Shown: positions 3,458-27,223, counted from the first letter of the stretch. The stretch is 38,510 bases of DNA from Frankiales bacterium (GCA_025966295.1 JAOPVD010000012.1:1-38510); one strand, 5' to 3'. The notes: generated from the letters alone by a model not told the origin. Numbers and translations are program-made.

Positions 3458-3792
3458 CAGAACTGCTCGGGCGAGACTCGGACCAGCAGGCCGTCGAGCT
3501 CCTCGGTGATGACGACCTGGCAGGACAGCCGGCTGCCGGGCTGGCACTCGGCCATGGCGTCGTCGAGGATCTCGGCCTCCGTCGGGTCGTCGGCATCTTC
3601 GGGCCGGCCGACGCGGTCGATCCAGGCGTCGTCGACGTAGACGTGGCAGCTTGCGCACGACAGGAAGCCGCCGCACTCGGCGACGATGCCAGGCACGCCG
3701 TTCTTCACGGCGGTGTCCATGACGGTGGCGCCGATGGCGCCCTGGACCTCGTGGCTGACGCCCTTCGGGTCGACAAAAACGATCCTTGCCAC
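3457..3792 (-). CDS. 2Fe-2S ferredoxin (adrenodoxin/putidaredoxin type)
   Basis: Cys pattern C-x5-C-x2-C...C (AECGGFLSCASCHVYV ... SRLSCQV). I prefer the GTG at 3792, which follows GAGGAGG. The alternative GTG at 3852 would add 20 aa. Confidence 0.85.
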   Translation of the reverse strand: MARIVFVDPKGVSHEVQGAIGATVMDTAVKNGVPGIVAECGGFLSCASCHVYVDDAWIDRVGRPEDADDPTEAEILDDAMAECQPGSRLSCQVVITEELDGLLVRVSPEQF

Positions 3793-3848: not shown

Positions 3849-4403
3849 TCACGTCGCATCCGGGAAGTCGAAGCCGAGGCCGGACAAGGCCGACGAGGTC
3901 TCCTCGGCGAAGTGCGCGAGCACCAGCAGATCACGGAGCCTGCCGTCGCGGTCGCGCATGTGGTCGCGCAGCAGCGCCTCGCCCTCGAAACCGAGCCGCC
4001 TGAAGACCTCGGCCGTCCCCTCCTGCTCGGCGGGCACCTCCACCACGATCTTGCTCAGCCCGGCGAGGAGGGCCGCCCGTAGCGCCGTGCGGGCCAGCAG
4101 CCGGCCCAGCCCCTGGCGGCGGGCATTGCGAGCCACCACCAGCCGCAGCTCGCCGACGTGGCTCGACAGGCCGAGGCCCGGCAGCAGCGCCGCGTAGCCC
4201 GCCACGCCCTGCTCGGACAGGACCACCCACCGGCTGGCTGGGCCCGGGTCGCCGGCGGCCGTGCCGGCCCAGGCCGGGTCTCGGACGTCCTCCTTCACCA
4301 CGGTCACGTCTTCGTCCGGTAGCGCGTCGAAGAACCGGCGCAGGTCGTCGGCGTGCTCGCGGGCCAGCAGCGTCGCGGCCGCCGAGGCGGTGCTGGTGGT
4401 CAT
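3849..4403 (-). CDS. GNAT-family N-acetyltransferase
   Basis: 184 aa. It carries the acetyl-CoA binding motif LVVARNARRQGLGRLLA. Its ATG overlaps the phaC stop (ATGA at 4400-4403). Confidence 0.8.
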   Translation of the reverse strand: MTTSTASAAATLLAREHADDLRRFFDALPDEDVTVVKEDVRDPAWAGTAAGDPGPASRWVVLSEQGVAGYAALLPGLGLSSHVGELRLVVARNARRQGLGRLLARTALRAALLAGLSKIVVEVPAEQEGTAEVFRRLGFEGEALLRDHMRDRDGRLRDLLVLAHFAEETSSALSGLGFDFPDAT

Positions 4404-5506
4404 GGCTGCTCCAGGGGGACGGGCCGGCTACGGCGGCGCAGGAAGTCCGAAATAGCGGGGATGCTCGTACGGTGTGCGGTGCGCCCGACGACCTGGCCGA
4501 TATGGCCCGCGTCCAGCAGCAGCTGCTGCTTGTCTGCGGAGCCGACAAGCTCGAACGCCGGCAGTGACGCCGACGGCGGGACGATGTTGTCGCGAGTGGC
4601 GACGACGTTCAGGTAAGGCGTGCGGATGTCGGCCAGCGAGACCTGCCGGTTGCCCAGCCGCAGCCGGCCGGTCATGAGGGCGTTGTCGCGGATGAGCATG
4701 TCGACCGACTGCTGGGCGGCCCGCCCGGGAAAGGGCACGTGGTCCTTGGCCCAGCCCGCCATGCGCTGGTGGGCCTCGACGAGCGCGTCGTCCCAGAGGT
4801 TGTCGAGCAGGTTGGCGTACTGCGACAGCTCCTGGGTCGGGGCGATGAGCTTGAAGTACTGGTAAAGCACGCTCGGTGGCACGTTCCCCGCGTCGTCGAG
4901 GACCTCGCCGACCTTCAGGTCTCCCCGTGCCAACGCCTCGGTCAACGCCCAGGAGCCCTGGTAGTCCACAGGCGTCGCCACCGTCGTGAGGCTCGCAAGC
5001 GGCAGCTCGGGGTTGGCGGCGACGGCGAGCAGCGCGAGGACGCCACCGAAGCAGTAGCCGAGCAGCGACACGTCGGGGCTGCCGGACGCCTCACGCACGG
5101 CATCGACGGCAGCCGGTATGTAGCGCTCGGCGTAGTCCTCGAGGCCGTTGCTGGCGTCCCGCTCGTCGGGAGTTCCCCAGTCGAGAAGGAACACGTCAAA
5201 GCCGTCGTCGCGCAGGTGCTCGACGAAGCTGTTGCCGGGAGTCAGGTCGAGCACGTAGCTCTTGGACACCAGGCTGAAGACGATGAGCAGCGGCGGCGCG
5301 TGGCGCACGTGGTCGCTGCGGTAGCGCCACATCGTGGCCCGGTCCTTCTGCCAGACGACGTCCTTGGGCGTGAGCCCCGCCGCGGGTCGGCCCGCCCCGG
5401 CGACGATCTTGATGCCGTTGCGGGCGCGGAGGGCGTTGCGCTCCACGTCGCGGCGTACGCGGTTGAGGACCTCCCCCGGAGCGCGCAGCACCGCCCCCGC
5501 ACCCAT
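4400..5506 (-). CDS. phaC: Class III poly(R)-hydroxyalkanoate synthase catalytic subunit PhaC
   Basis: 368 aa, which is class III size. It has the lipase-box-like GYCFGG with a Cys nucleophile, a candidate Asp in ATRDNIVPP and a candidate His in DAGHIG. Confidence 0.8.
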   Translation of the reverse strand: MGAGAVLRAPGEVLNRVRRDVERNALRARNGIKIVAGAGRPAAGLTPKDVVWQKDRATMWRYRSDHVRHAPPLLIVFSLVSKSYVLDLTPGNSFVEHLRDDGFDVFLLDWGTPDERDASNGLEDYAERYIPAAVDAVREASGSPDVSLLGYCFGGVLALLAVAANPELPLASLTTVATPVDYQGSWALTEALARGDLKVGEVLDDAGNVPPSVLYQYFKLIAPTQELSQYANLLDNLWDDALVEAHQRMAGWAKDHVPFPGRAAQQSVDMLIRDNALMTGRLRLGNRQVSLADIRTPYLNVVATRDNIVPPSASLPAFELVGSADKQQLLLDAGHIGQVVGRTAHRTSIPAISDFLRRRSRPVPLEQP

Positions 5507-6858: not shown

Positions 6859-7662
6859 GTGCCGCACGTCCTGTCGACGCTCGGGGCAGCGCCCCACGCG
6901 CGCCCGAGCCTGCTGCTCCAGGCGCTCGAGCTGCCGCGGGCCTGCGCCGAGTACGGCGCCCTCCTGAGCACCGCCGGCCTGCTGCGGCTGCTGCCCAAGG
7001 GCACCGGCGCGCCCGTCGTCGTGCTTCCCGGCTTCGCCGGCGACGACCTCTCGACCGCTGCGCTGCGGACCGTCCTGCGCGGGCTGGGCCACCACGTCGT
7101 CGGCTGGGGGCTGGGTCGCAACGTCGGCCCCACCTCGAGCACGCTGGCCGGGGTCGACCGGCTGGTGCGCGGGCTCGTCGACCGGCACGGCGTCCCCGTC
7201 GCGCTCGTCGGCTGGAGCCTCGGCGGCGTCTTCGCGCGCCGACTGGCCGCCGCACGTCCCGAGGAGGTGCGCCGGGTCGTCACCCTCGGCAGCCCGTACC
7301 GGCTCGACGACCCGGCGAAGACCCGTGCCCAGTGGCTCTACAACCGCTTCGAGCATCTGCACGACGCGGCGCACGAAGTGCGTGTCGGCGGACCTGCCTC
7401 GCGTCCGCTCCGCGTCGCCAGCACCTCCATCTACTCCTACACCGACGGCGTCGTGCCGTGGGGCGCATGCCGCGAGGCTGACACCGCCTTGGCCGAGAGC
7501 GTCGCCGTTCCAGGCAGCCACAACGGCCTCGGGCACAACCCGCTGGCCATGTGCGTCGTGGCCGACCGCCTGGCGCTCCCGCCCGGCGACCACTCCCGCT
7601 TCGCGCCGCCCGCGGCGCTGCGTCACCTGTTCCGCGTCGGCGGCGCGCCGGTCAACCGCTGA
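6859..7662 (+). CDS. Alpha/beta-fold hydrolase (esterase/lipase-like)
   Basis: I infer a GTG start at 6859, because the upstream part of the listed ORF overlaps the previous gene. It has the nucleophile elbow GWSLGG, a candidate Asp in YTDGVVPW and a candidate His in GSHNGLGHNP. Confidence 0.75.
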   Translation: MPHVLSTLGAAPHARPSLLLQALELPRACAEYGALLSTAGLLRLLPKGTGAPVVVLPGFAGDDLSTAALRTVLRGLGHHVVGWGLGRNVGPTSSTLAGVDRLVRGLVDRHGVPVALVGWSLGGVFARRLAAARPEEVRRVVTLGSPYRLDDPAKTRAQWLYNRFEHLHDAAHEVRVGGPASRPLRVASTSIYSYTDGVVPWGACREADTALAESVAVPGSHNGLGHNPLAMCVVADRLALPPGDHSRFAPPAALRHLFRVGGAPVNR

Positions 7663-9184
7663 CGGCCACCCCGGCTCCGTGCTGGGCCCGCAGGGCGCGC
7701 TTGTCCAGCTTGCCCATGGCCGTGCGTGGCAGCTCGTCGACCACCGTGAGCAGGCGCGGGCACTTGTAGTGCGCGAGGTGCGCCCGGCAGTGCTCGAGCA
7801 GGGCCTGTGCGGTCAGCGCCGGGTCGGCCACGACGACGAGCGCGCGCAGCTCCTCACCCATCTCCTCGTGCAGCACCCCGAAGGCCGCGGCGTCCACGAC
7901 CCCGGGCACCGCCGTCAGCACCGCCTCGACCTCGGCCGGGTAGACGTTCACGCCGCCGGAGACCACGAGGTCCGACACGCGGTCGGTGATGTAGACGTAG
8001 CCGTCCGCGTCGACGTGGCCCACCTCGCCGAGGGTGAACACGTCCGGCGGCAGGTCGGCGTCCTTCCCGTGCGACGGGTCGGCGTAGACCAGACCTCGTC
8101 CGGTCGCGTCGCGAAAGCACAGCCGCCCGGTGGTCCCGGGCGGCAGCGTCCGGCCGTCGGCATCGAGCACCAGCACCTCGTACGGCGGCACCGCGCGGCC
8201 GACCGACCCCGGGTGCGCGAGCCACTCGATCGAGTCGATGCTGTTCGTGGTCCCGACCTCGGTGCCGCCGTAGGCCTCGTCGAGGATGGGCCCCCACCAG
8301 GCGATCATCCGGCGCTTGAGCTCGACGGGGCACGCCGCGCCGGTGTGCACCACCTTGCGCAGCGAGCTGGTGTCGTAGGCCTTCCGGACCTGCTCGGGCA
8401 GGGCGAGCAGCCGCGCGAAGTGCGTCGGCACCATGACGCTGGCAGCCACGCGGTGCTCCTGCACGGCGCGCAGCACGCCCTCGGCGTCGAAGCGCGGCAG
8501 CACGACGAGCGGCGTGCCGGCCAGCAGCAGGCGCACCGCCGTCAGTGGGCCGGTGTGGTGCAGCGGTCCGACGACGAGGTGCGGGCTGAAGGCGGCGAGC
8601 GGGTTGGCGCGCAGCCGCTCGAGCAGCTCGCGGACGTCAGCTCCCCCAGGGAACGTCGTGGGTGGCTGCTCCACCGGCTTCGGCCGGCCCGTCGTACCCG
8701 AGGTGAACATGAGCGGCGGACGCGGCACGAGGTCCAGCGCGGCCGGAACGTCCGGCGCTGCGGCCAGGAGCGACTCCCACCCGCGGACATCCGCGGAGGA
8801 CGCGGAGCGCCACGCGAGGACGTCGAAGTCCCCCACGGCAGCCGCCGCCTGCACCGCCACCTCCAGCGTCTCGGGCCCAGCCAGCACGACGCGCGCCTGC
8901 GCCACAGTCAGCACGTACTCGACCTCGCCCGGCTTGAGGTGCGCGCTGACGGGGACGGCAGAGAGCCCGGCGAGGGCGATCGCGGCGTGGGCCACGACCG
9001 TCTCAGTGCTGTTGTGCGCGAGGACGGCGACCCGCCCGGCCGGCCCGGTGTCGAGGCCGCGCAGCACGCCAATGGCGCGGTCGAGGACGGTGTCCAGCTC
9101 GGACCAGGTGAGAGCCGTCCTGCCGTCGGTCACGGCAATCTCGCCGGGACCTCGCTCGGCGATGGTTTCGCGTAGGCCGCTCAT
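7652..9184 (-). CDS. AMP-dependent acyl-CoA synthetase/ligase
   Basis: 510 aa. It has the AMP-binding motif FTSGTTGRPKPV and a C-terminal GKLDKRAL. Its ATG overlaps the upstream stop (ATGA at 9181-9184). Confidence 0.9.
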   Translation of the reverse strand: MSGLRETIAERGPGEIAVTDGRTALTWSELDTVLDRAIGVLRGLDTGPAGRVAVLAHNSTETVVAHAAIALAGLSAVPVSAHLKPGEVEYVLTVAQARVVLAGPETLEVAVQAAAAVGDFDVLAWRSASSADVRGWESLLAAAPDVPAALDLVPRPPLMFTSGTTGRPKPVEQPPTTFPGGADVRELLERLRANPLAAFSPHLVVGPLHHTGPLTAVRLLLAGTPLVVLPRFDAEGVLRAVQEHRVAASVMVPTHFARLLALPEQVRKAYDTSSLRKVVHTGAACPVELKRRMIAWWGPILDEAYGGTEVGTTNSIDSIEWLAHPGSVGRAVPPYEVLVLDADGRTLPPGTTGRLCFRDATGRGLVYADPSHGKDADLPPDVFTLGEVGHVDADGYVYITDRVSDLVVSGGVNVYPAEVEAVLTAVPGVVDAAAFGVLHEEMGEELRALVVVADPALTAQALLEHCRAHLAHYKCPRLLTVVDELPRTAMGKLDKRALRAQHGAGVAVSG

Positions 9185-10677
9185 CGCAGCTCCTTCTTGA
9201 GGATCTTGCCCGAGGCGCCCTTCGGGAGCTCGTCGAGGACGCGCACCTCGCGGGGGTACTTGTAGGCGGCCAGGCGCTCCCGGCAGAAGGCCACGACCTC
9301 ATCGGCCGTGACGTGGGTGCCCGGCCGCAGCGAGACGACCGCCACGACCTCCTCACCGAGCCGGTCGTCGGGGCGCCCGAGGACCGCCGCCTCGCTGATG
9401 GACGGGTGGGCGTAGAGCACCTCCTCGACCTCGCGCGGGTAGACGTTGTAGCCGCCGCGGATGATGAGGTCCTTCTTGCGGTCGACGACGAACAGGAAGC
9501 CGTCCTCATCCTCGTAACCCAGGTCTCCGGTGTGCAGCCATCCGTCGCGCACCGCCTCGGCGGTCGCGACCGGGTCGCCGTAGTAGCCCTTCATGACGTT
9601 GTGACCGCGCACGACGAGTTCGCCCACGTGCTCCGGACCGCGCTTCAGCCTCCGGCCCTCCGCATCCACCACGTGGACGTCGACACCCCAGACGGGCTTG
9701 CCGATCGAGAGCAGCCGGCGGTCCTCGCGGCTGCGGTTGAAGGTGGCCGTGGCGCACGACTCGGAGAGCCCGTAGCCCTCGAGGAGCAGGACGCCGAACC
9801 GCTCCTCCACCTTCCGCAGCACCTCGCCCGGCAGGGCAGCGCCCCCCGAGACCGCCAGCCGGAACGGGCACAGGTCCCGGGCCGAGGTGTCCTCCCGCAG
9901 CAGGGCGTGGAACATCGTCGGGACGCCGAACACGATGGTCACGCCGTCGCGTTCCATGACGTCGAGGACGGCCTGCGGTTCGAAGCGCGGCAGGACCGTC
10001 AGGGTGCTGACGTAGCGGACGGCGACGCCGATCAGCGACAGCCCGTACACGTGGAAGAACGGCACGACGGCGAGCGAAACGTCGTCCGGGCCGAACCCGA
10101 ACAGCGCCCCCGAGATCGCGCTGTTCATGACCAGCTGCAGGTGTGTGAGCTGGGCGCCCTTGGGCCGGCCGGTCGTGCCGCTCGTGTAGACCAGCACCGC
10201 CGTGTCCTCCGAGCTGGTCGGCACGAGGTCGTCGAAGGGCTCGGCGTCGTACAGCAGCGCGAGTTCGCGGCAGCCGGCGGGAAGCGGTGCGCCGTCGGCC
10301 AGGGCGTACACCGGCAGTCCGTCGCCGGCGCGCGCCGCCTCGGCGGCGAATGGTCCGCTCGTGACCAGCAGGCTCGCGCCCGAGTCGTGCAGCTGGTGGT
10401 GTACCTCGCGCTCGCGCAGCTGGGGGTTGAGCGGCACGACCGTGAGACCGGCGCGCAGGACGCCGAAGTAGAGGGCGACGAAGTCGGGGCCGTTCGGCAG
10501 CTGGACCGCGATCTTCGCCGCCGCTCCGAGGCCGAGCGCGAGCAGGCTCGATGCCACGCGGCCGGAGCGGTCGTCGAGCTCGGCGTAGGTGACGGTCCTG
10601 CCGTCGTGGACGAGGCACGTCCGGTCCGGTGCCGCGCGCGCCGCCTCGCGCAGGACCGTGGCGAAGTTGAGGCTCAC
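9181..10677 (-). CDS. Long-chain-fatty-acid-CoA ligase-like adenylate-forming enzyme
   Basis: 498 aa. Motifs are YTSGTTGRPKGA, GYGLSE, TGDLGYEDEDGFLFVVDRKKDLI and GKILKKEL. There is a GTGA overlap with the echA-like stop at 10674-10677. Confidence 0.9.
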   Translation of the reverse strand: MSLNFATVLREAARAAPDRTCLVHDGRTVTYAELDDRSGRVASSLLALGLGAAAKIAVQLPNGPDFVALYFGVLRAGLTVVPLNPQLREREVHHQLHDSGASLLVTSGPFAAEAARAGDGLPVYALADGAPLPAGCRELALLYDAEPFDDLVPTSSEDTAVLVYTSGTTGRPKGAQLTHLQLVMNSAISGALFGFGPDDVSLAVVPFFHVYGLSLIGVAVRYVSTLTVLPRFEPQAVLDVMERDGVTIVFGVPTMFHALLREDTSARDLCPFRLAVSGGAALPGEVLRKVEERFGVLLLEGYGLSESCATATFNRSREDRRLLSIGKPVWGVDVHVVDAEGRRLKRGPEHVGELVVRGHNVMKGYYGDPVATAEAVRDGWLHTGDLGYEDEDGFLFVVDRKKDLIIRGGYNVYPREVEEVLYAHPSISEAAVLGRPDDRLGEEVVAVVSLRPGTHVTADEVVAFCRERLAAYKYPREVRVLDELPKGASGKILKKELR

Positions 10678-11477
10678 GCGACGGGGTCGGCAGCGAACCG
10701 CGGCCGGCGCTTGCCGAGGAAGGCCGCGACGCCCTCGCGACCGTCCGCCGCGCCGGCGAGGGCTGCGATGCTGGCCGCCTCGGCGTCGAGCTGGTCTGCC
10801 CAGCTGCGGTCCGGCGCGGCCCGCAGGAGTGCCTTGGTCGCGGCGAGCGCGGGCGCCGACCCGGAGGCCAGCTGCTCGACGAGCGCGTCGCCGGTCGCGG
10901 CCAGCTCGTCGTCCTCGACGACGCGGCTGACGAGGCCCCAGGCCTCGGCCTGCTCTGCCGTGAGGGTCCGGTTGGTCAGGGCGAGGTCCATCGCACGCGC
11001 CGGCCCGAACGCCCTTGCGAGGTGGGCGGAGACGCCGCAGTCAGGTGACAGGCCGGCGGCCGTGTAGGCGACCCGCAGGCGCGCTCGCCGGCCGACGAGG
11101 ACGACGTCCCCGGCGAGCGCGACGCCCAGCCCGCCACCGGCCGCGGCACCTTGCACGACACAGACCACGGGCACGGAGGCAGCGCGCACGCGGTCCAGTG
11201 CGGCGTGCGCTGCGGCGGCCACCGCGGCGACGTGAGCTGACGGGTCCGCCACGCCGGCGAACTCGGCCAGGTCACCGCCGACGCAGAAGGCCGACCCCTC
11301 GGCGTCGAGGCGCAGGACGCGCAGAGCGGGATCGCCCAGCAGCTCGGCGACCCCGTCGCGCATCGCCTCGACCATGGCGAGGTCGAGCGCGTTGCCGGCG
11401 TCCGGCCGAGCGAGCGTGAGCGTCCCGACCCCGCCCACAAGGCGGGTCCGAACGCGGTCTCGCAGCAGCTGTCCCAT
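10674..11477 (-). CDS. Enoyl-CoA hydratase/isomerase (crotonase) family protein
   Basis: The real start is ATG at 11477 (MGQLLRD..), preceded by GGAGG. The crotonase fold signature is FCVGGDLAEF ... VVQGAAAGGGLGVALAGD. Confidence 0.9.
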   Translation of the reverse strand: MGQLLRDRVRTRLVGGVGTLTLARPDAGNALDLAMVEAMRDGVAELLGDPALRVLRLDAEGSAFCVGGDLAEFAGVADPSAHVAAVAAAAHAALDRVRAASVPVVCVVQGAAAGGGLGVALAGDVVLVGRRARLRVAYTAAGLSPDCGVSAHLARAFGPARAMDLALTNRTLTAEQAEAWGLVSRVVEDDELAATGDALVEQLASGSAPALAATKALLRAAPDRSWADQLDAEAASIAALAGAADGREGVAAFLGKRRPRFAADPVA

Positions 11478-12279: not shown

Positions 12280-13425
12280 TCAGACGCCGAGCCGCTCAAG
12301 CAGCTGCGCGCGGTGGTGCGCCGGGTCGCCGAACAGCAGGGAGCTGCTGCGGGCACGGCGGAAGTACAGGTGCGCCGGGTGCTCCCAGGTGAAGCCGATG
12401 CCGCCGTGCACCTGGACGTTCTCGGCCGAGGTGAAGACGAACGCCTCCGAGCACACGACGCCCGCCATCGCCGCCGCGACCGGGAGCTCGGCGCTCCCGT
12501 CCGCCGCCGCAGCCACCGCCCAGGCCACCGCCGAGCGCCCGGCGTCGACCTTCATCGCCATGTCGGCGCAGCGGTGCTTGACCGCCTGGAACGAGCCGAT
12601 CGGCCGGCCGAACTGCAGCCGGATCTTCGCGTAGTCGACCGCCATCTCCAGGGTGCGCTGCGCGCCGCCGAGCTGCTCTGCGGCGAGGGCCACGACCGCC
12701 CGGTCGAGCACCCGTTGGACGAGCGGCTCGGCCGCGCCGTCGCGGCCGACGAGCCGGGCGGGCACGTCCCGCAGCACCAGCTTGGCCAGCTTGCGCGTCG
12801 GGTCCAGCGTGCGCATCGAGGTGCGCTGCAGGCCAGGCGCGTGGCCCTCGACGGCGAACAGGCTCAGGCCCTCGTCGCTCCGGGCGACGACCAACAGCAG
12901 GTCGGCGAGCAGGCCGTCGAGGACGAAGGACTTGGTGCCGTCGAGGCGCCAGCTGCCATCGGTGTCACGTCGCGCCGAGGTCGCCGTCCGTGCGACGTCC
13001 CAGCTGCCGTCGTCCTCCGTGACCGCGAGCGTCGCGAGGCAGGTGCCAGCCGCGATGCGCGGCAGATGCTCCTCGCGGGCCGCGGCGTCATCGCCGAGCA
13101 GCAGCGCGCCCGCGGCCAGCACGACCGTCGAGAAGTAGGGCAGGCAGGCCGACGCCCGACCGAGCTCCTCGAGGACGACGGCCAGCTCGCGGAATGACCC
13201 CCCCGATCCTCCGAGCTCCTCGGGGACATCGATGCCGATCAGGCCGAGCTCCTCGGCCAGCTGCTTCCACAGCGCCGCGTCGTGGCCCGTCTCGGTCTCC
13301 ATGAGGCGACGGACCGCGCTCTCGTCCGAACGGCGGGAGAGGAAGGTGCGCAGCGCGGTGCGCAGCTGCTCCTGGGTCTCGTCGGGCCCCAGCCGGACCG
13401 GCGACCGCTCGATGGACAGCGTCAT
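12280..13425 (-). CDS. Acyl-CoA dehydrogenase family protein
   Basis: The real start is ATG at 13425 (MTLSIERSP..), which overlaps the upstream stop (ATGA). The C-terminus reads QVHGGIGFTWEHPAHLYFRRA, as in FadE-type ACADs. Confidence 0.9.
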   Translation of the reverse strand: MTLSIERSPVRLGPDETQEQLRTALRTFLSRRSDESAVRRLMETETGHDAALWKQLAEELGLIGIDVPEELGGSGGSFRELAVVLEELGRASACLPYFSTVVLAAGALLLGDDAAAREEHLPRIAAGTCLATLAVTEDDGSWDVARTATSARRDTDGSWRLDGTKSFVLDGLLADLLLVVARSDEGLSLFAVEGHAPGLQRTSMRTLDPTRKLAKLVLRDVPARLVGRDGAAEPLVQRVLDRAVVALAAEQLGGAQRTLEMAVDYAKIRLQFGRPIGSFQAVKHRCADMAMKVDAGRSAVAWAVAAAADGSAELPVAAAMAGVVCSEAFVFTSAENVQVHGGIGFTWEHPAHLYFRRARSSSLLFGDPAHHRAQLLERLGV

Positions 13426-14915
13426 GCGGTCGCCAGCTCGTCGCGCAGGACCCGGCGCAGCAGCTTGCCGGTCTCGTTGTGCGGCAGCGCAGGCAGGAAG
13501 TGCACCCGGGCCGGCGTCTTGGACGACCGCAGCCTCTCCCGGACCCACGTCTGCAGCTCCTGCTCTGTGGCCGAGCGGCCCGCGACGAGGACCACAGCCG
13601 CGTTGACGGCCTCCCCCCACTCGGTGTCGGGGATGCCGACGACAGCCGCTTCGGCCACCGCGGGGTGGGCGAGCAGAACGTCCTCGATCTCGCCCGGCGA
13701 GAGGTTCTCGGCACCGCGCACGATGACGTCGTCCGCGCGGCCGTCGACGTAGAGGAAGCCGTCCTCGTCCAGCCAGCCGCGGTCGCGCGTCGGGAACCAG
13801 CCCTCCTCGTCGAGGGCACGGTGGGACAGGTACTCCCCGGACACCTGCTCGCCCCGCACGTAGATCTCCCCCTGCTCCCCCGCCTGCACGGCGAGACCAT
13901 CCACGTCACGCACCTCGATCTCGACCGACGGCAGCGGACGGCCGACCGAACCCAGGCGGCGGCGTACGGCCGGGTCCTCGCTGGCGGCGGCGTCGCGGTG
14001 CTCCTGCGGCCCAAGGACCGCAATGGTCGAGCTGGTCTCGGTGAGGCCGTAGGCGTTGACGAGGTCGACGTCCGGCAGCAGGGCGAGGGCCCGCTCCACG
14101 ACGGTGAACGGCATCCGGCCGCCGCCGTACGACAGGTGGCGCAGGGCCGGCAGGCCCTGCCCGTCGCGCTCGAGCACCTCGAGGATCCGGCCCAGCATCG
14201 TCGGGACGACCATCGCCTGCGTGATCGCCTCCCGGCGCGCCAGCTCGACCCAGGCCTCCGGGGAGAAGCTCGCGAGCTGCACCATCCGCCGACCGGCGTA
14301 GACCGACGTGAGGACGCTCGAGATCCCCGCGATGTGGTACGGCGGGACGCTCACGAGGATGGCCTCGTCCTCGTCGGCGCCGAGGAACTCGACGCTCGAC
14401 AGGACGTAGGACACCAGGTGGCTGGCGCGTAGGACGGCCCCCTTGGGCTCGCCGCTCGTACCGCTGGTGAACAGGAGCACCGCCACCGCGTCGCCGTCGG
14501 GCTCGTGCTCGCCGGCTAACGCGGCACCCTTCTCGGCGAGCGCACCCAGCTCGTCCGGCGACACGACCTCGATCCCCTGCACGTCCGCGAAGCGGGCGGC
14601 CTGCTCCGGTGGCGCCACGACGACGGCGGGCGCGATCCGGGTCACCATGGCCTGCAGTTGCGCGTCCGCGAGCCGGTAGTTCAGCGGCACGAACGGCAGG
14701 CCGGCGTACGACGCGCCGTAGACGAGCAGGGGCAGGGCGCTGGACGTCACGTCGACCATGGCGACGTGCTGCACCCCCCGGGCCTTGAGCTCGGCCCCGA
14801 GGCCGCGGGCGCGGTCCTGCAGCTGCGCGTAGGACAGCCCGTCGGCCTTCGTGCCGACCGCGAGCCGGTCGGGGCATCCCTCGGCCGCCATCTCGAGCAG
14901 CATCGTCAGGTCCAT
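13422..14915 (-). CDS. Adenylate-forming acyl-CoA ligase (class I)
   Basis: 497 aa. Motifs are FTSGTSGEPKGA, AYGLTE, TRDRGWLDEDGFLYVDGRADDVI and GKLLRRVL. Confidence 0.9.
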   Translation of the reverse strand: MDLTMLLEMAAEGCPDRLAVGTKADGLSYAQLQDRARGLGAELKARGVQHVAMVDVTSSALPLLVYGASYAGLPFVPLNYRLADAQLQAMVTRIAPAVVVAPPEQAARFADVQGIEVVSPDELGALAEKGAALAGEHEPDGDAVAVLLFTSGTSGEPKGAVLRASHLVSYVLSSVEFLGADEDEAILVSVPPYHIAGISSVLTSVYAGRRMVQLASFSPEAWVELARREAITQAMVVPTMLGRILEVLERDGQGLPALRHLSYGGGRMPFTVVERALALLPDVDLVNAYGLTETSSTIAVLGPQEHRDAAASEDPAVRRRLGSVGRPLPSVEIEVRDVDGLAVQAGEQGEIYVRGEQVSGEYLSHRALDEEGWFPTRDRGWLDEDGFLYVDGRADDVIVRGAENLSPGEIEDVLLAHPAVAEAAVVGIPDTEWGEAVNAAVVLVAGRSATEQELQTWVRERLRSSKTPARVHFLPALPHNETGKLLRRVLRDELATA

Positions 14916-14919
14916 CGCG

Positions 14920-15219
14920 TCAGTCCGAGGCCGGCAGGGACTTGGCGTCCTTGACGCTCAGCAGGCGGCCGTCGACGGACAGGCTGCCGGCACCGCCCTT
15001 GGTGCAGAGCAGCTCCAGACCGCTGGCCGGGTCCTCGTAGCGCTTGCCGAGCAGGGCCCCGCCGTCGTAGCCGGGTGCGAGCTCAGCCTCGCCAGCCGGG
15101 CCGGCGCCCTCCGCCATCGGCTGGCCGCCGCACTCGACGGACACCGGCGATGCGGGCGCCCTGACCACGACCACCGTGGCCGTGCACACACCGCTCCGAA
15201 GACGGGTTCCTGCCTTCAT
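14920..15219 (-). CDS. 99-aa protein of unknown function with two degenerate desulforedoxin-like repeats
   Basis: The ATG at 15219 is preceded by AGGAGGAG. See the finding at 14920-15219. The stop lies 4 nt before the ligase start. Confidence 0.65.
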   Translation of the reverse strand: MKAGTRLRSGVCTATVVVVRAPASPVSVECGGQPMAEGAGPAGEAELAPGYDGGALLGKRYEDPASGLELLCTKGGAGSLSVDGRLLSVKDAKSLPASD

Positions 15220-15292
15220 GACTGCTCCTCCTGCTTGGGCCGCCACCTGCGGCTCCTGACGACTGCCGATCGTGCTCTCGTGCCCGTGCGGC

Positions 15293-16375
15293 TCAGCGGC
15301 CGGTGCTGCCCGCCACCTCGGAACGGTCGAGGACGTCGAGCGCCGAGCGGGTCAGCGCGACCACCTGCGCCCCGCGGGTCCCCATGCGCTCATCGGTCGT
15401 CTCGCCGCGCAGGTAGCGGGCGTACAGCTGCTGGAGGATGACGATCGTCTTCCAGCGGCCGTACGCCTCGTACCAGTCGATGTCGGCGATCTGCCTTCCG
15501 CTGCGTTCGCGGTAGCGCTCGACGACCTCGGCGCGCGTCGGGAGGCCGAGCCGGTCCACACCGGGCACGATGAGTACGACGTCGGGGCCGTCGGAGGGGT
15601 CGGGCCAGTAGTTCAGCAGGGTGCCGAGGTCGACCAGCGGGTCGCCGAGCGTCGTCATGTCCCAGTCGAAGACCGAGACGACCTGATCGGGGTCGTTGGG
15701 CGCGAACTGGCAGTTGTCGATCTTGAAGTCGTTGTGCACGAGCGCCGGCGGGCCGGACACCGGCATCCGCGCGGCCAGCCGGTCGCTCAGCTGTTCGGCC
15801 TGGCCGTCGCCGTCCTCCGGGGCCACGGCGTCCCAGCGCTTGCGCCAACCGGCGAGCTGCCGGGTGAGGAAGCCGTCGGGCCGGCCGAGGTCCCCCAGGC
15901 CGACGGCGACGGGGTCCACGGCGTGCAGGTCGGCGAGCGCGTCGACGACGGCGAACCCGATCCGTCGACCGGCGTCGGGCAGGTCGCTCATCGAGTCGGG
16001 GATGGCGTCCCAGACCACGATCCCGGGCCGGTACTCGACGACGAGAAAGTCCGACCCGACCACGGACGGGTCCTCGCAGAAGGAGAACGCGCGAGGCGCG
16101 CGGGGGTAGCCGGCGTACAGCCTCGACAGCGCCCGGTACTCACGTCGCATGTCGTGCGCACCGGGCGCGAGCACGCCGAACGGGGGCCGTCGCACGACGA
16201 GCCGACGGTCGCCGAACGACACCTGGTAGGTGAGGTTGGCCGAGCCGTTGGGGAACTGCAGGACCGTCATCTCGCCCTGCAGGCCCGTCACGTTCGCGCG
16301 CAGGTACGCCTCCAGCGCCGCCCAGTCCAGCTCCTCGCCGGCTCGGACGGGCGCGGTCTCCTGCCGGTCAACCAC
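15293..16375 (-). CDS. APH-fold phosphotransferase (aminoglycoside-phosphotransferase-like kinase; ACAD10/11- or LvaA-type by context)
   Basis: 360 aa. It has the catalytic loop VHNDFKIDN, the metal-binding VFDWDMTTLGDPLVDLG and an N-terminal ...LEAYL... The GTG start overlaps the end of the upstream ACAD by 8 nt. Confidence 0.9.
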   Translation of the reverse strand: MVDRQETAPVRAGEELDWAALEAYLRANVTGLQGEMTVLQFPNGSANLTYQVSFGDRRLVVRRPPFGVLAPGAHDMRREYRALSRLYAGYPRAPRAFSFCEDPSVVGSDFLVVEYRPGIVVWDAIPDSMSDLPDAGRRIGFAVVDALADLHAVDPVAVGLGDLGRPDGFLTRQLAGWRKRWDAVAPEDGDGQAEQLSDRLAARMPVSGPPALVHNDFKIDNCQFAPNDPDQVVSVFDWDMTTLGDPLVDLGTLLNYWPDPSDGPDVVLIVPGVDRLGLPTRAEVVERYRERSGRQIADIDWYEAYGRWKTIVILQQLYARYLRGETTDERMGTRGAQVVALTRSALDVLDRSEVAGSTGR

Positions 16376-17660
16376 GGCCGAGCGCCAGGGCGTCGGCGTA
16401 GCGGAGCCGCGCCGCGTCCGTCATCGTCGGCAGGTGGTAGGGCGGGAACAGGCCCTCGTCGGGCTCGTAGGCCCGCAGCAGGAACTGCGCGAGGTTGACC
16501 TTGTGCACCTCGGTCGCGCCGTCGGCGAGGCCCATGTGGAACGACTCCATCACCCACTTGCCGAACGGCAGCTCCTTGGAGATGCCGAGCGAGCCGTGGA
16601 TCTGGATGGCGCGGCCGGCCACGTCGAGCAGCACCTTCGGCATGCCCGCCTTGACCGCGGAGATGTCGGCGCGCACGAGGCGGTAGTCGTTGTAGCGGTC
16701 GATCTTCCACGCGGTGCGCAGCACCAGGAGCCGGAACTGCTCGATCTGCAGCCAGCTGTCGGCGACCATCTCCTGCACCAGCTGCTTGCGCGCCAGCGGC
16801 TCACCCTTCGTGGAGCGGGACACGGCGCGACGGCAGATCAGGTCGAAGGCGTGCTGCACGAGGCCGACGGTACGCATGGCGTGGTGGATGCGGCCGCCGC
16901 CGAGGCGCGTCTGCGCGACGGCGAAGCCGGCGCCGCGCTCACCGAGCAGGTGGTCGGCCGGGATCCGGCAGTCCTCGTAGCGGATGTAGGCGTGCGTGCC
17001 CTCCGCCTCGTCATGACCGTGCACGCCGACGTTGCGGACGATGTTGACACCCGGCGTGTCCGCCGGCACCACGAACATCGACATGCTGGAGTGCTTCGGC
17101 GCGTCGGGGTCGGTCACCGCCATGACGATGAGGAACGACGCGAAGCCGGCGTGGGACGAGAACCACTTCTCGCCGTTGATGACCCACTCGTCGCCGTCGA
17201 GGACCGCCGTGGTGCGGAACCCCGTCGGGTCGGATCCGCCGTGCGGCTCCGTCATCGAGAACGACGACACGATCTCGTTCTCCAACAGCGGCTCGAGGTA
17301 CTGCTTCTTGAGGGCGTCGGTGCCGTAGTGGGCGAGGATCTCGGCGTTGCCGGAGTCCGGCGCCTGACAGCCGAACACGACCGGGCCCGAGTGCGTGCGG
17401 CCGAGCCGCTCGTTGAGCAGCGCGAGCTTGAGCTGGCCGTACCCGAGGCCGCCCAGCTCGGGGCCGAGGTGGGCGCCCCACAGCTTGCGCTCACGCACCT
17501 GGGCCTGGAGCGGCTTGATCAGCGCGTTGCGGACCGGGTCACGCACGTCCCAGGCATGCTCGATGACGAGGTCGACCGGCTCGATCTCGTTGGTGACGAA
17601 CTCGTCGACCCAGTCGAGCTCCTGCTGGAAGTCGGGGTCGGTCTCGAAGTCCCATCCCAT
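16368..17660 (-). CDS. Acyl-CoA dehydrogenase family protein with Asp at the canonical catalytic-Glu position (ACAD10/11/LvaC-like)
   Basis: 430 aa; the ATG is preceded by GAGGAG. The ACAD fold motifs are SSFSMTEPHGGSDP and WVINGEKWF. The C-terminal motif reads GLADGATEVHKVNLA where typical ACADs have xYEGTxEIQ. Confidence 0.9.
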   Translation of the reverse strand: MGWDFETDPDFQQELDWVDEFVTNEIEPVDLVIEHAWDVRDPVRNALIKPLQAQVRERKLWGAHLGPELGGLGYGQLKLALLNERLGRTHSGPVVFGCQAPDSGNAEILAHYGTDALKKQYLEPLLENEIVSSFSMTEPHGGSDPTGFRTTAVLDGDEWVINGEKWFSSHAGFASFLIVMAVTDPDAPKHSSMSMFVVPADTPGVNIVRNVGVHGHDEAEGTHAYIRYEDCRIPADHLLGERGAGFAVAQTRLGGGRIHHAMRTVGLVQHAFDLICRRAVSRSTKGEPLARKQLVQEMVADSWLQIEQFRLLVLRTAWKIDRYNDYRLVRADISAVKAGMPKVLLDVAGRAIQIHGSLGISKELPFGKWVMESFHMGLADGATEVHKVNLAQFLLRAYEPDEGLFPPYHLPTMTDAARLRYADALALGRG

Positions 17661-21941: not shown

Positions 21942-22175
21942 TCAGCCCTCCTGCAGCCCCAGCGCCCGTTCCGGGCAGGTCTGTACGCCGAGCCGCGCCT
22001 GTCGCCGGAGCTCGTCGGTCGCCGGCACGACCTCGTCGACGAGCTCGACGAAGCCCTCGTCATCCGGGGCGAACACGCCGGGTGCCAGGCTGTAGCAGCG
22101 GCCGTGACCGACGCAGGCCTCACGGTCGACCAGGACGCGCAGCGTGGCGTTCTCGCCGCCCGGGACCGCGCTCAC
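21942..22175 (-). CDS. Small [3Fe-4S]-type ferredoxin (P450 partner type)
   Basis: The real start is GTG at 22175, which overlaps the P450 stop (GTGA). 77 aa, with CVGHGRCYSLAP ... CPERA (C-x2-H-x2-C ... CP). Confidence 0.8.
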   Translation of the reverse strand: MSAVPGGENATLRVLVDREACVGHGRCYSLAPGVFAPDDEGFVELVDEVVPATDELRRQARLGVQTCPERALGLQEG

Positions 22176-23422
22176 CGGACCACCGAGGCGGTGTCCCAGA
22201 CCAGCGGCAGCTTGCTCAGCCCGAGCTGCGGGCCGCTCTCGACGATCTCGTCCGGCCCGACCGACGGGTCCAGTCGGTAGTGCGGGATGCGCTTGTGCCA
22301 CTCCTGGAGCGCCACGGTGAGCTCGAGGCGAGCCAGGTGGGAGCCGAGGCAGCGGTGCGGTCCGCTGCCGAACGAGAAGTGCGTGACGGCCTCGCGGTCG
22401 AAGTCGACCTTCTCAGCGTGCTCGAACTCGAGCGTGTCACGGGACGCCGCGGCCAAGGTCAGCATGACCATGTCGCCCTTCTTCATGGGGCAGCCGTGGA
22501 AGTCCATGTCCTCCTCCACGCGCCGGCCGTCCATGACGATGGCGAAGGCGCGCAGCAGCTCCTCGACCGCAGCCGGCGCGATCGAGGGGTCGTCGATGAT
22601 CCGCTGCCGGTCGTCGTCGTGTGTGGCCAGGTGGTAGAAGGCGTAGCCGAGCTGGCTCTTGACCGTGTCGAGCCCGGCCAGGATCAGCACGAGCGACATG
22701 TTCAGGAACTCCTCGTCGGTGATCGGCCGGTCGCCGATGTTCGACGTTGCGAGGCGGCCGAAGAAGTCGTCCCGCGGGTTCGCGCCGAGCTCTGCCAGCA
22801 GAGCGGTGAAGTACGCCCGGATCTCGGCGAACGCCCGCTGCAGCAGCTCGACCCCCTCGGGGTTGCCAAGGCCGGCGAAGGCGTCCTCGACCCAGGCCAC
22901 GAACTTGTCGGTGTCCTCGGTGGGGAGCTCGACGATCTGCAGGAAGACCTTGGTCGGGAAGACCATGGCGAAGTCGGTCACGAGGTCGACCGAGCCCTTG
23001 TCCATGAGCGACTCGATGAGCTCGACGCAGTCTCGTCGGATGGAGGGCTCGAGCCCTGCGACGACCTTCGGGGAAAACTGCGGGTTGAGCACAGAGCGGT
23101 AGAGCCGGTGGTTCGGCGGGTTCTCCATCGTCGGGATGAAGTGGTAGTCGGGCTCGGGGATGGTCGGCACCGTGGCCGAGCTGCTGAACAGCTGCGGGTT
23201 CTGGAACGCCTCCTGGACCAGGGCGTTGCGGTTGAGCATCCAGAAACCACCGCCGAAGGTGTTCCAGGCGATCGGCGACTTCTCCCGCATCTCGTCCAGG
23301 ACCGTGAAGTACTCCGTGGCCGGGCGCGGCTGGGTGAAGTCGAAGTCGACGACCGGGCAGCCCGCCGCCGTAACCTCCTCGGTGCGGCTCAAGGGAGTGG
23401 CCTCCTCGTGCGTAGCAGTCAC
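22172..23422 (-). CDS. Cytochrome P450, CYP101 (P450cam)-like
   Basis: Heme loop FSFGSGPHRCLGSHLA, ExxR (VEELLR) and I-helix ILAGLDTV. The stretch YHFIPTMENPPNHRLYRSVLNPQFSPKVV...CVELIESL closely parallels P450cam [29 protein letters not shown]...CSLIESL. I prefer the GTG at 23422 (preceded by GGAGAGG). The alternative is ATG at 23449. Confidence 0.9.
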   Translation of the reverse strand: MTATHEEATPLSRTEEVTAAGCPVVDFDFTQPRPATEYFTVLDEMREKSPIAWNTFGGGFWMLNRNALVQEAFQNPQLFSSSATVPTIPEPDYHFIPTMENPPNHRLYRSVLNPQFSPKVVAGLEPSIRRDCVELIESLMDKGSVDLVTDFAMVFPTKVFLQIVELPTEDTDKFVAWVEDAFAGLGNPEGVELLQRAFAEIRAYFTALLAELGANPRDDFFGRLATSNIGDRPITDEEFLNMSLVLILAGLDTVKSQLGYAFYHLATHDDDRQRIIDDPSIAPAAVEELLRAFAIVMDGRRVEEDMDFHGCPMKKGDMVMLTLAAASRDTLEFEHAEKVDFDREAVTHFSFGSGPHRCLGSHLARLELTVALQEWHKRIPHYRLDPSVGPDEIVESGPQLGLSKLPLVWDTASVVR

Positions 23423-23498: not shown

Positions 23499-24791
23499 TC
23501 ATCGGGGCACGTCCCGCCACGGACCCCGGTCCTGGCGGGGTTCGGCCGGCAGCCCGAGCAGCCGGTCGCCGATGATGTTCCGCTGGATCTCGTCGGTGCC
23601 ACCGGCGATGCGGTAGCCCGGTGCGCCCAGCAGGTGCTCGGTCCAGGCGAACGTGCCCCACTCGCCCGTGTCGGCCGCGAGGCGCGGGCCGAGGACGGCA
23701 GCAGCCGCCTCGGAGGCCAGCGCCATCCCCTGCACCCAGTGCAGCTTGCGCAGCGAGCCGACCGGTCCGGGCTCGTCGCCCGACAGGCGGGACTCGTGGT
23801 CGCGCTGCGCGGCCAGGCGGGCCACCTGCTCGGAGATCCAGACGTCGGCCAGGAGCTGACGCACGTGGGGGTCGGTGTCGCGCTGCAGCTCCTGGGCGAG
23901 CGGGAGCAGCTGCTGCCAGCCGCCGCCCACGCGGCTGCTCGCGCCGCTGTGGCCGCGTTCGAACCCGAGCGTGGCCAGCGCGACCTTCCACCCGGCCCCG
24001 ACGTCGCCGAGGCGCAGGCTGTCGGGGATCCGGACCTCGTCGAGGAACACCTCGCAGAAGGACGTGCCCCCGGACATCTGTCGAAGCGGCCGCACGTCGA
24101 CCCCGGGGAGGTCGAGCGGGAGCAGGAAGGCAGTGAGGCCCGCCTGCTTGACGGCGTCGGGGTCGGTGCGCGCGATCAGCTCCCCCCACCGGGCGAACTG
24201 CGCACCCGAGCTCCACACCTTCTGCCCGGTGACGACCCAGTCGTCGCCGTCGCGCACGGCCCGCGTGCCGAGTCCACTCAGGTCCGAGCCGGCGGCGGGC
24301 TCGGAGAACAGCTGGCAGCACAGCTCGTCGCCCCGCAGCAGCGGGCGCAGGTGGGTGGCCACCTGGTGCGGCGTGCCGAACAGGCGCAGCGTGGGGGCCA
24401 CCAGGTGAAGAGTGACCGAGGAGAGCTCGTGCGCCGGCGGGACGTCGTAGGCAACCTCGAGAGCGTTGAACGCCTCCTCGTAGGCGGACGACAGCCCCGC
24501 GCCGCCTAGCTCGACGGGCCAGGTCAGCGCGCCGAAGCCGGCGTCGTACTTGCAGCGCTGCCACTCGCCGACCTGCCGGAGCAGGGCCAGCTCGTCCTCG
24601 TGGGAGAGGTCGTGGAAGACCGCGACGGAGTCCGACCCGGCGCCCCAGGCGTCCTCCTGCGAGCGCGGCGCAGCGGACCGGGCGAGCCAGGCTGCGGCGC
24701 GCCGCCCGAATTCCGCCAGCTCCTGCGTGCTCGCAGCCGTGCTCGGCACCGTGGGTCTCCTCGCGCTCGACACCTGCATGACGTGCGTCAC
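23499..24791 (-). CDS. Acyl-CoA dehydrogenase family protein
   Basis: The GTG at 24791 is preceded by GGAGGAA; the alternative is ATG at 24779. Motifs are CQLFSEPAAGSDL, WVVTGQKVWSS and the C-terminal YRIAGGTDEIQRNIIGDRLLGLP. Confidence 0.9.
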   Translation of the reverse strand: MTHVMQVSSARRPTVPSTAASTQELAEFGRRAAAWLARSAAPRSQEDAWGAGSDSVAVFHDLSHEDELALLRQVGEWQRCKYDAGFGALTWPVELGGAGLSSAYEEAFNALEVAYDVPPAHELSSVTLHLVAPTLRLFGTPHQVATHLRPLLRGDELCCQLFSEPAAGSDLSGLGTRAVRDGDDWVVTGQKVWSSGAQFARWGELIARTDPDAVKQAGLTAFLLPLDLPGVDVRPLRQMSGGTSFCEVFLDEVRIPDSLRLGDVGAGWKVALATLGFERGHSGASSRVGGGWQQLLPLAQELQRDTDPHVRQLLADVWISEQVARLAAQRDHESRLSGDEPGPVGSLRKLHWVQGMALASEAAAAVLGPRLAADTGEWGTFAWTEHLLGAPGYRIAGGTDEIQRNIIGDRLLGLPAEPRQDRGPWRDVPR

Positions 24792-26440: not shown

Positions 26441-27223
26441 CTAGCCCGCGGGGTACGGCGAGGAGATGGACACGCCGCCGTCGACGGTGAGGACCGTGCC
26501 CGTGGTGAAGGAGGACGCCGAGGACGCGAAGTACAGGACCGTCCCCACGATCTCCGCTGGGTCGCCCAGCCGGCCGACGGCGTAGCGCTCCTTCGCCCAG
26601 GCGGTCAGGCCCTCGAGGTCCCAGGACGCCGAGATGTCGGTGAGGAACGGTCCCACCATGATCCCGTTGACCCGGACGTTCGGGCCCAGCACGCCGGCGA
26701 AGCCCAGGGTCATGCTGTTGAGCCCCGCCTTCGCCGCCGCGTAGGGCAGGTCGTTCGCCGTCGGCCGGGCCGCGGCGATGCTGCTTATGTTGACGATGGA
26801 CCCGCCGTTGCCGGCCGCCATCCGCTCACCGACCAGGACGCTCAGCCGGAACGGGCCCTTGAGGTTGACCGCGAAGACCTTGTCGTACAGGTCCTCGCTC
26901 AGCTCGGACAGGCTCGGATACAGCGGGGCGATGCCGGCGTTGTTGACGAGGACGTCGACCGCCCCGAACTCGGCGTAGCTGGTCTCCACCAGCTGCTCGA
27001 CGTCGTCCCAGCGGCCGACGTGGCAGGCGACCGGCAAGGCGCGCCGGCCGGTCGCCTCCCGGACCTCCCGCGCGACCTGCTCGCAGGCGTCCAGCTTGCG
27101 GCTCGCGATGACGACGTCGGCCCCGGCCCGGGCCAGACCCAGGACGGTCTCGCGGCCGAGCCCCCGGCTGCCGCCGGTGACGAGGGCGGTCTTACCGGCG
27201 AGCGGCAGGTCTGCGGCGGCCAT
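26441..27223 (-). CDS. Short-chain dehydrogenase/reductase (SDR)
   Basis: The real start is ATG at 27223 (MAAADLPLAGKTALVTGGSRGLG). It also has NNAG and YAAAKAG. The upstream part of the listed 435-aa ORF is artefact. Confidence 0.9.
   Translation of the reverse strand: MAAADLPLAGKTALVTGGSRGLGRETVLGLARAGADVVIASRKLDACEQVAREVREATGRRALPVACHVGRWDDVEQLVETSYAEFGAVDVLVNNAGIAPLYPSLSELSEDLYDKVFAVNLKGPFRLSVLVGERMAAGNGGSIVNISSIAAARPTANDLPYAAAKAGLNSMTLGFAGVLGPNVRVNGIMVGPFLTDISASWDLEGLTAWAKERYAVGRLGDPAEIVGTVLYFASSASSFTTGTVLTVDGGVSISSPYPAG

Follow-up and report, generated by a model that had tools for sequence, protein, structure and literature searches.

The closest described relatives of the system treated here are the lvaABCDE genes of Pseudomonas putida, the LvaA/LvaC pair of Burkholderia pseudomallei, and the mammalian proteins ACAD10 and ACAD11. 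In the bacterial systems a kinase of the aminoglycoside phosphotransferase (APH) fold and an Asp-type acyl-coenzyme A (CoA) dehydrogenase (ACAD) are separate proteins, and a short-chain dehydrogenase/reductase (SDR) and a CoA ligase are encoded in the same cluster, while in the mammalian ones the kinase and the ACAD are fused. LvaA and LvaC and their Burkholderia orthologues perform 4-phospho chemistry in vitro and can substitute for the domains of ACAD10 (PMC11342911). In ACAD11 the catalytic base is D753, and R626, H634 and R637, which are missing from conventional ACADs, bind the 4-phosphate (PMC12440821). LvaB, of 12 kDa, is a binding partner of LvaA (PMC6692424). Here we describe a row of five genes at 12280-17660 in a 38,510-nt stretch of DNA from a metagenome-assembled genome of an uncultured Frankiales bacterium (the whole stretch is called the window below, and all coordinates are counted in it), where a separate APH-fold kinase, an Asp-type ACAD, an SDR and a CoA ligase are likewise found in one cluster, and where the same route is predicted, from 4-hydroxyacyl-CoA over 4-phosphoacyl-CoA to 2-enoyl-CoA.

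The row probably consists of three functional units, and we give this reading a probability of about 0.6: the kinase with the first ACAD (ACAD-A), an adenylate-forming ligase with a protein of 99 amino acids (aa), and a second ACAD (ACAD-B) that is part of a separate ACAD. Homology, conserved catalytic residues and gene linkage are what the reading builds on, and the activities, the substrate and the physical partnerships are inferred from them. We read the kinase and ACAD-A as a new and divergent bacterial member of the LvaA/LvaC-ACAD10/11 system, the mechanism of which can be transferred to them by homology with good confidence. Both are homologous to the domains of ACAD10 and ACAD11 (PDB 8v3u, 8v3v and 2wbi), and the catalytic Asp, the Arg/His/Arg site and the HxD...N...D residues of the kinase are kept, but the pair is bacterial, is made of two polypeptides in the opposite order and has no HAD domain. 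Compared with lva, the ACAD gene comes before the kinase gene, the SDR gene is 9 kb away, the small protein tracks the ligase and not the kinase, and the setting is a large cluster with CoA-transferases, thiolases and a cytochrome P450 (P450) instead of a levulinate operon. ACAD-A is also the more distant branch, with about 41% identity to ACAD11 against 56-62% for LvaC (PMC11342911), a comparison made by way of these two percentages.

Layout of the locus

The G+C content of the stretch is about 71%, and at third codon positions (GC3) it is 0.93-0.97 in each of the five genes. A first-pass annotation, made from the sequence alone, had described five co-directional and tightly packed genes together with their overlaps and motifs, and calling of open reading frames recovered all of this as described, with the five genes on the minus strand at the same positions:

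16368-17660, minus strand: ACAD-A, 430 aa, with the ACAD N, M and C Pfam domains
15293-16375, minus strand: APH-fold kinase, 360 aa, GTG start, PF01636 at 5.3e-45
14920-15219, minus strand: small protein, 99 aa, without a Pfam or NCBIfam match
13422-14915, minus strand: adenylate-forming acyl-CoA ligase, 497 aa, AMP-binding (PF00501) at 6.8e-63 and AMP-binding_C (PF13193) at 7e-24
12280-13425, minus strand: ACAD-B, 381 aa, with the ACAD N, M and C Pfam domains

Profile searches thus agree with how the genes had been named, finding the APH domain in the kinase and the three ACAD domains in both ACADs. The ACAD-A gene, which ends in TGA, and the kinase gene, which starts with GTG, overlap by 8 nucleotides (nt). 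The kinase and the small gene are separated by a gap of 73 nt, the TGA of the small gene and the ATG of the ligase gene by one of 4 nt, and the ligase and ACAD-B genes share an ATGA overlap. We place the start of the small gene at the ATG at 15219 rather than at the GTG at 15246, because an AGGAGG lies 5 nt 5' of this ATG and because homologues of the protein are 99-103 aa long. The motifs are HNDFKIDN (214-221) and DWD (237-239) in the kinase, and LADGATEVH (378-386) in ACAD-A.

ACAD-A and the kinase

The best PDB matches of ACAD-A are an ACAD of Mycobacterium abscessus (4hr3, 6.8e-79), mouse ACAD11 (2.1e-72) and human ACAD11 (4e-68), and the best ordinary ACAD follows only at 4e-45, weaker by about 25-30 orders of magnitude, so that the protein groups with ACAD11 and 4hr3 and not with ordinary FadE enzymes. 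Its identity to the ACAD domain of ACAD11 is 40.7%, and about 41% is found against both ACAD11 and 4hr3. The Asp in place of the catalytic Glu, which had been read from the motif in the first pass, was confirmed by alignment: LADGATEVH falls on LADGPDEVH of ACAD11 (8v3u), and D380, R252, R257, H260 and R263 align with D753, R626, R631, H634 and R637, which means that the Arg/His/Arg triad is present as well. In the inactive ACAD11 structure 8v3v it is the Asp aligned with D380 that has been replaced by Asn. The triad residues R252, H260 and R263 are located in RLGGGRIHHAMR. Among 27-29 orthologues from other genomes all five of these residues are invariant, with D380 kept in 27 of 27 and the triad in 29 of 29, and an unrelated ACAD from the same loci has I, I and L at the triad positions and Glu at the position of the base. 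The PDB matches and the aligned residues support placing ACAD-A in the ACAD10/ACAD11/LvaC clade, and we predict that it eliminates phosphate from 4-phosphoacyl-CoA with Asp as base.

The kinase has only four PDB matches at E<=1e-3, namely 9o56 (1.5e-80), 3dxp (1.6e-46) and the N-terminal part of ACAD11 (5.4e-40 and 7e-39). No structure of an antibiotic APH is found in the PDB at this threshold, and the matches are confined to kinases of the ACAD11 type. The catalytic loop and the metal site had been judged intact, and H214, D216, N221 and D237 are indeed invariant among 85 of 85 homologues. The kinase is supported as one of the ACAD11 N-terminal/LvaA type, apart from the resistance enzymes, and is predicted to act on 4-hydroxyacyl-CoA. 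A search of the literature on an actinobacterial 4-hydroxyacyl-CoA kinase, on FadE36 and on PDB entry 9o56 gave nothing useful.

In the route that we propose, the genes of the kinase and ACAD-A would be translationally coupled, an SDR encoded at 26441-27223 would reduce a 4-oxoacyl-CoA to the 4-hydroxyacyl-CoA in an LvaD-like manner, and the kinase would phosphorylate the 4-hydroxyl with ATP. ACAD-A, carrying flavin adenine dinucleotide, with Asp380 as base and with R252, H260 and R263 holding the phosphate, would then oxidise C2-C3, eliminate the phosphate and be re-reduced, and the net product, a 2-enoyl-CoA, would pass on to beta-oxidation. The CoA thioester would be formed by the ligase with the 99-aa protein as an accessory, possibly docking by its invariant free C-terminal tail, and ACAD-B would be the inactive beta subunit of an alpha2beta2 ACAD with its alpha subunit encoded at 23499-24791.

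Conservation of the pair

An independent metagenome contig (L085) carries the same five genes in the same order and with the same 8-nt overlap, with proteins that are 61-86% identical, and since the arrangement is repeated there it goes beyond chance. In this contig the small gene overlaps the kinase stop. The synteny extends past the five genes (L085:15715-21095; window 4400-5491, minus strand, and 6859-9133), and both continue with two further ligases, a hydrolase of the alpha/beta type and one that is PhaC_N-like. In place of the DoxX gene and the hydratase of the window, L085 has GntR regulators.

A kinase homologue is present in 27 of the 28 fetched loci with an ACAD-A orthologue, a count that carries a bias, since the kinase was the query that retrieved most of them. 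Where both genes are present, they are at most 423 nt apart in 19 of the 27 loci. The annotation of plasmids from Caulobacter and Acinetobacter shows the order SDR-ACAD-kinase, that of a Paraburkholderia plasmid ACAD-kinase-SDR with an 8-nt overlap, and on a Streptomyces plasmid small gene, ligase and kinase are divergent from SDR and ACAD. Both Actinomycetota and Proteobacteria have such pairs repeatedly, many of them accompanied by an SDR, and the adjacency is kept in related genomes without being universal. In Nocardia and Rhodococcus the kinase is next to a different ACAD, with ACAD-A a few kb off. The core of the first-pass annotation is favoured by all three of these comparisons, in that ACAD-A is no ordinary ACAD, the kinase is no antibiotic APH and their adjacency is conserved.

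Kinase homologues that are 56-68% identical were also seen in six loci (L090, L091, L134, L144, L161 and L167) where neither an ACAD nor any of the cluster genes lies within several kb. The ACAD partner of these kinases may be encoded elsewhere, or else they may be paralogues with another role.

The 99-aa protein and the linked ligase

The 99-aa protein belongs to a large family, with 488 relatives in a word-indexed search and 1315 clusters at 50% identity in an exhaustive one, and the family is present in at least 576 species genomes of Acidimicrobiia, Actinomycetes, Sphingomonadaceae, Caulobacteraceae, Comamonadaceae and others. The members are about 100 aa long and 50-60% identical across phyla, and have an invariant GKR, CGG and C-terminal K-x-L-P-[AS]-S-D. 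In every match, the few longer proteins included, the domain ends at the C-terminus of the protein. Pfam gave only noise at E <= 5 and NCBIfam likewise no match, and a profile search of the PDB found none either (best E = 0.81). An AlphaFold (AF2) model, with a predicted local distance difference test score (pLDDT) of 89, is all-beta with a less ordered tail, and no fold match was found for it in the PDB, the best Foldseek hit having E = 0.18.

It is the gene neighbourhood that points to the partner of the protein. Among the 83 small-protein loci in genomes with room for a downstream gene, 65 have an orthologue of the ligase (43-65% identical) that starts 6-96 nt downstream of the small gene, and three further loci have the two genes side by side in a different arrangement. 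Only 3 of 84 loci have a kinase within 10 kb. Proteobacterial examples have the small gene and the ligase with no kinase nearby, and ACAD-kinase pairs without a small gene are found in Thermobifida, Caulobacter, Acinetobacter and Paraburkholderia. Because of this context and of the ACAD-kinase clusters that do without it, we link the 99-aa protein to the ligase and not to the kinase, and the earlier proposal of a different small partner for the kinase had to be given up. Judged by gene context, a role as LvaB analogue is not supported.

The ligase, of which the nearest PDB relatives are generic only (MenE at 4e-59 and FadD13 at 7e-55), is predicted to activate the acid substrate as a CoA thioester, and the 99-aa protein is by gene linkage its predicted accessory partner. 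We tentatively suggest that the protein represents an undescribed and widespread family of Actinomycetota and Proteobacteria. Its members could be obligate accessory subunits of a specific clade of adenylate-forming CoA ligases, or could serve these as regulators or carriers that insert their tail. If this is true, the family would be to catabolic acyl-CoA ligases, in function, what the MbtH-like proteins, small partners of the adenylation domains of nonribosomal peptide synthetases, are to their enzymes. The likeness is one of analogy only, in that both are small, encoded beside an adenylate-forming enzyme and conserved together with it, but there is no similarity in sequence or fold (no Pfam match), the 99-aa protein is all-beta with a free and invariant C-terminal tail, and its binding to the ligase is putative.

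When a small gene has no ligase after it, a gene for a family III CoA-transferase often lies immediately upstream (the loci concerned are L006, L040, L079 and L171), and in Sphingobium the CoA-transferase gene comes first, followed by the small gene and then by the ligase gene. The protein could have a more general part in CoA activation. No fusions of the small protein with a ligase were found among the family members. In the longer members the domain is C-terminal, in one case behind Fer2 and in another behind an ABC ATPase, the latter perhaps an artefact of gene calling. In one family member of 234 aa (P0265) the small-protein domain is preceded by a 2Fe-2S ferredoxin domain, a 4Fe-4S ferredoxin gene lies directly 5' of the small gene in another genome (L004:7766-8306), and three cysteines are nearly invariant in the family. 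A redox or metal link of the family is possible.

ACAD-B and its likely partner

Where MCAD has its Glu and ACAD11 its Asp, ACAD-B has Phe365, and at the position of E247 in ChsE4 it has Ala. In NCBIfam it matches IpdE2 and the PimD small subunit best, and its best PDB matches, Tcur3481 (5.8e-44) and ChsE5 (4x28_D), are beta subunits of alpha2beta2 ACADs. The window holds a second gene of this kind:

23499-24791, minus strand: ACAD-C, alpha-type catalytic subunit, pimC_large at 3.9e-42

The best PDB matches of ACAD-C are the alpha subunits ChsE4 (4x28_A, 4.7e-34) and Tcur3483, and it has a Glu that aligns with E247 of ChsE4 and Gly at the position of the MCAD Glu. A beta subunit without a base and an alpha subunit with a Glu is also what is seen in ChsE4-ChsE5 (FadE26-27), IpdE1-IpdE2 (Tcur3483-3481) and PimC-PimD. 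In these known alpha2beta2 ACADs the genes are adjacent, whereas the ACAD-B and ACAD-C genes are 10 kb apart in the window, with ACAD-C upstream. Relatives of ACAD-B (49-51% identical) do however immediately adjoin ACAD-C-like genes in Rhodococcus BH4 and Mycobacterium branderi, and the Mycobacterium avium plasmid pP7a encodes a fusion of 786 aa (L176:6001-8361), with a beta-type half that is 50% identical to ACAD-B and an alpha-type half that is 40% identical to ACAD-C.

Since it has no base and beta-type matches, and since its relatives are adjacent or fused to proteins like ACAD-C, ACAD-B is best read as a non-catalytic beta-type subunit of a separate, heteromeric alpha2beta2 ACAD, outside the phospho-elimination step, and ACAD-C, from the relatives with adjacent or fused genes, is its likely partner. 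The second ACAD is therefore probably no part of the module to which it had been assigned in the first pass. ACAD-B had also been considered as a partner of ACAD-A, since the two are neighbours in L113 and L152 and are coupled in Thermobifida, and this pairing was set aside as less likely than that with ACAD-C after the results on fusion and adjacency.

Weighing the alternatives

Several observations weigh against the reading in three units. ACAD-A is, by its identity to ACAD11, a separate subfamily compared with LvaC, and its substrate could therefore differ. Among the 37 kinase-homologue loci that have at least 1.4 kb on both sides, the ACAD-A orthologue is adjacent to the kinase in nine and present in the locus in 14, and none of the cluster genes is found in 16. 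The candidate SDR gene lies 9 kb from the kinase and ACAD-A, four loci have ACAD-B and ACAD-A but no ACAD-C within the captured DNA, about 15 of the 83 small-protein loci have no ligase nearby, and in one lineage the ligase orthologue occurs but not the small gene. The comparison with LvaB, too, is one of gene context. The low identity of ACAD-A, about 41% to both ACAD11 and 4hr3, also speaks for the explanation that the kinase and ACAD-A are a diverged subfamily which keeps the logic of phosphorylation followed by elimination and applies it to another substrate, such as the hydroxyl of an alicyclic or terpenoid-derived acyl-CoA, or a dicarboxylyl-CoA. The conserved cluster around the pair, with two family III CoA-transferases, two thiolase/OB-fold pairs, an alpha/beta ACAD, a P450cam-like P450 and a DitZ/PtmU3-like protein, points to a bulky or branched acid. 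The ACAD11 residues that place C2-C3 and the 4-phosphate are however all conserved, which speaks for a phospho group that stands as in ACAD11 with respect to the thioester, even if the acyl tail could still be unusual, and we regard this explanation as unlikely, though to be taken seriously.

A single lva-like unit of all five genes, in which the 99-aa protein replaces LvaB and ACAD-B is an extra component of the same step, is suggested by the parts list, which is like that of lvaABCDE with its 12-kDa LvaB that binds LvaA (PMC6692424), by the co-directional and tight packing of the genes and by the small gene that overlaps the kinase stop in L085. It becomes quite improbable when the small family is followed through other genomes, where it goes with the ligase in 65 of 83 loci and with a kinase within 10 kb in 3 of 84, where many Proteobacteria have it without a nearby kinase, and where the pairs of Thermobifida, Caulobacter, Acinetobacter and Paraburkholderia lack it, and ACAD-B is without a base and has relatives that are fused or adjacent to subunits like ACAD-C. 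The public annotation, which reads 'acyl-CoA dehydrogenase family protein' and 'aminoglycoside phosphotransferase', would fit an ordinary FadE-type dehydrogenase that stands by chance beside an antibiotic-resistance APH. The chance of this is close to nil: the base of ACAD-A is Asp and not Glu and comes with the R/H/R triad, at E<=1e-3 the kinase has no match among structures of antibiotic APHs, and the pairing recurs across phyla with overlapping stop and start. The alignments refute it.

With the kinase and ACAD-A read as an LvaA/LvaC-type pair, the phosphorylation-driven removal of a 4-hydroxyl, a part of lipid biochemistry that was solved recently, would be transferred to genes whose current annotation goes no further than 'phosphotransferase family protein' and 'acyl-CoA dehydrogenase family protein', and which are common in Actinomycetota (Rhodococcus, Nocardia, Streptomyces, Thermobifida and Pseudonocardia). 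It also places the pair in a conserved and uncharacterised catabolic cluster, the substrate of which can now be sought. Two tempting mis-assignments are corrected, one that made the small protein an analogue of LvaB and one that counted ACAD-B into the module, and a large unannotated family of small proteins that travels with a CoA ligase is flagged, which is the most novel element of the locus.

The surrounding cluster and the origin of the 4-hydroxyl

The five genes lie within a long array on the minus strand, with two more ligases further downstream together with a hydratase, and much of the array is found again, with its genes in other orders, in Rhodococcus, Nocardia, Thermobifida and many soil metagenome contigs. 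Other genes of the cluster are:

26441-27223, minus strand: SDR, adh_short at 4e-50, candidate LvaD-like 4-oxoacyl-CoA reductase
10674-11438, minus strand: enoyl-CoA hydratase, ECH_1 at 1.6e-43
27225-28400, minus strand: DitZ/PtmU3-like protein of the Amidohydrolase_2 fold, best solved relatives DitZ (9e-37) and PtmU3 (1.6e-30)
21942-23392, minus strand: P450cam/CYP101-like P450 with an adjacent 4Fe-4S ferredoxin, 5e-68 to camphor 5-monooxygenase
2234-3792, minus strand: putidaredoxin-like 2Fe-2S ferredoxin and putidaredoxin-reductase-like flavoprotein, about 18 kb from the P450
17731-21884 and 24853-26438, minus strand: two tandem family III CoA-transferase genes and two thiolase-like/OB-fold (DUF35) pairs

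The first-pass annotation had named P450 hydroxylation and the opening of gamma-lactones as sources of the 4-hydroxy acids, and this part of it has become weak. SDR orthologues (55-77% identical) stand beside the kinase in many relatives, for example L121, L128, L129, L135, L101 and L106, which is also the place of LvaD in lva, whereas the P450 is an occasional neighbour, present in only some of the related loci. It is for this reason that we prefer the reduction of a 4-oxoacyl-CoA by the SDR as the more likely origin of the 4-hydroxyl. At the other end of the route the 2-enoyl-CoA product may be taken up by the hydratase, a candidate by its position only.

Among solved structures the P450 is closest to camphor and other terpenoid hydroxylases, and together with the redox proteins at 2234-3792 it would form a complete class I P450 system, which hints at a terpenoid-like substrate. 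DitZ and PtmU3 are diiron oxygenases, and DitZ is a diterpenoid hydroxylase. Their relative at 27225-28400 has the N-terminal D-x-H, and DFPHPT at the C-terminus where the published motif is D-x-P-H-x-D/E, and its orthologues (63-68% identical) recur in related clusters. It is speculative, but the relatives of the P450 and of this protein may hint at an alicyclic or terpenoid acid as the substrate. The set of CoA-transferases, thiolase/OB-fold pairs, SDRs, hydratase and ACAD, which is kept together with the kinase cluster across Actinomycetota, also resembles that of the Bbs beta-oxidation of benzylsuccinate, with weak NCBIfam matches to BbsA and BbsB.

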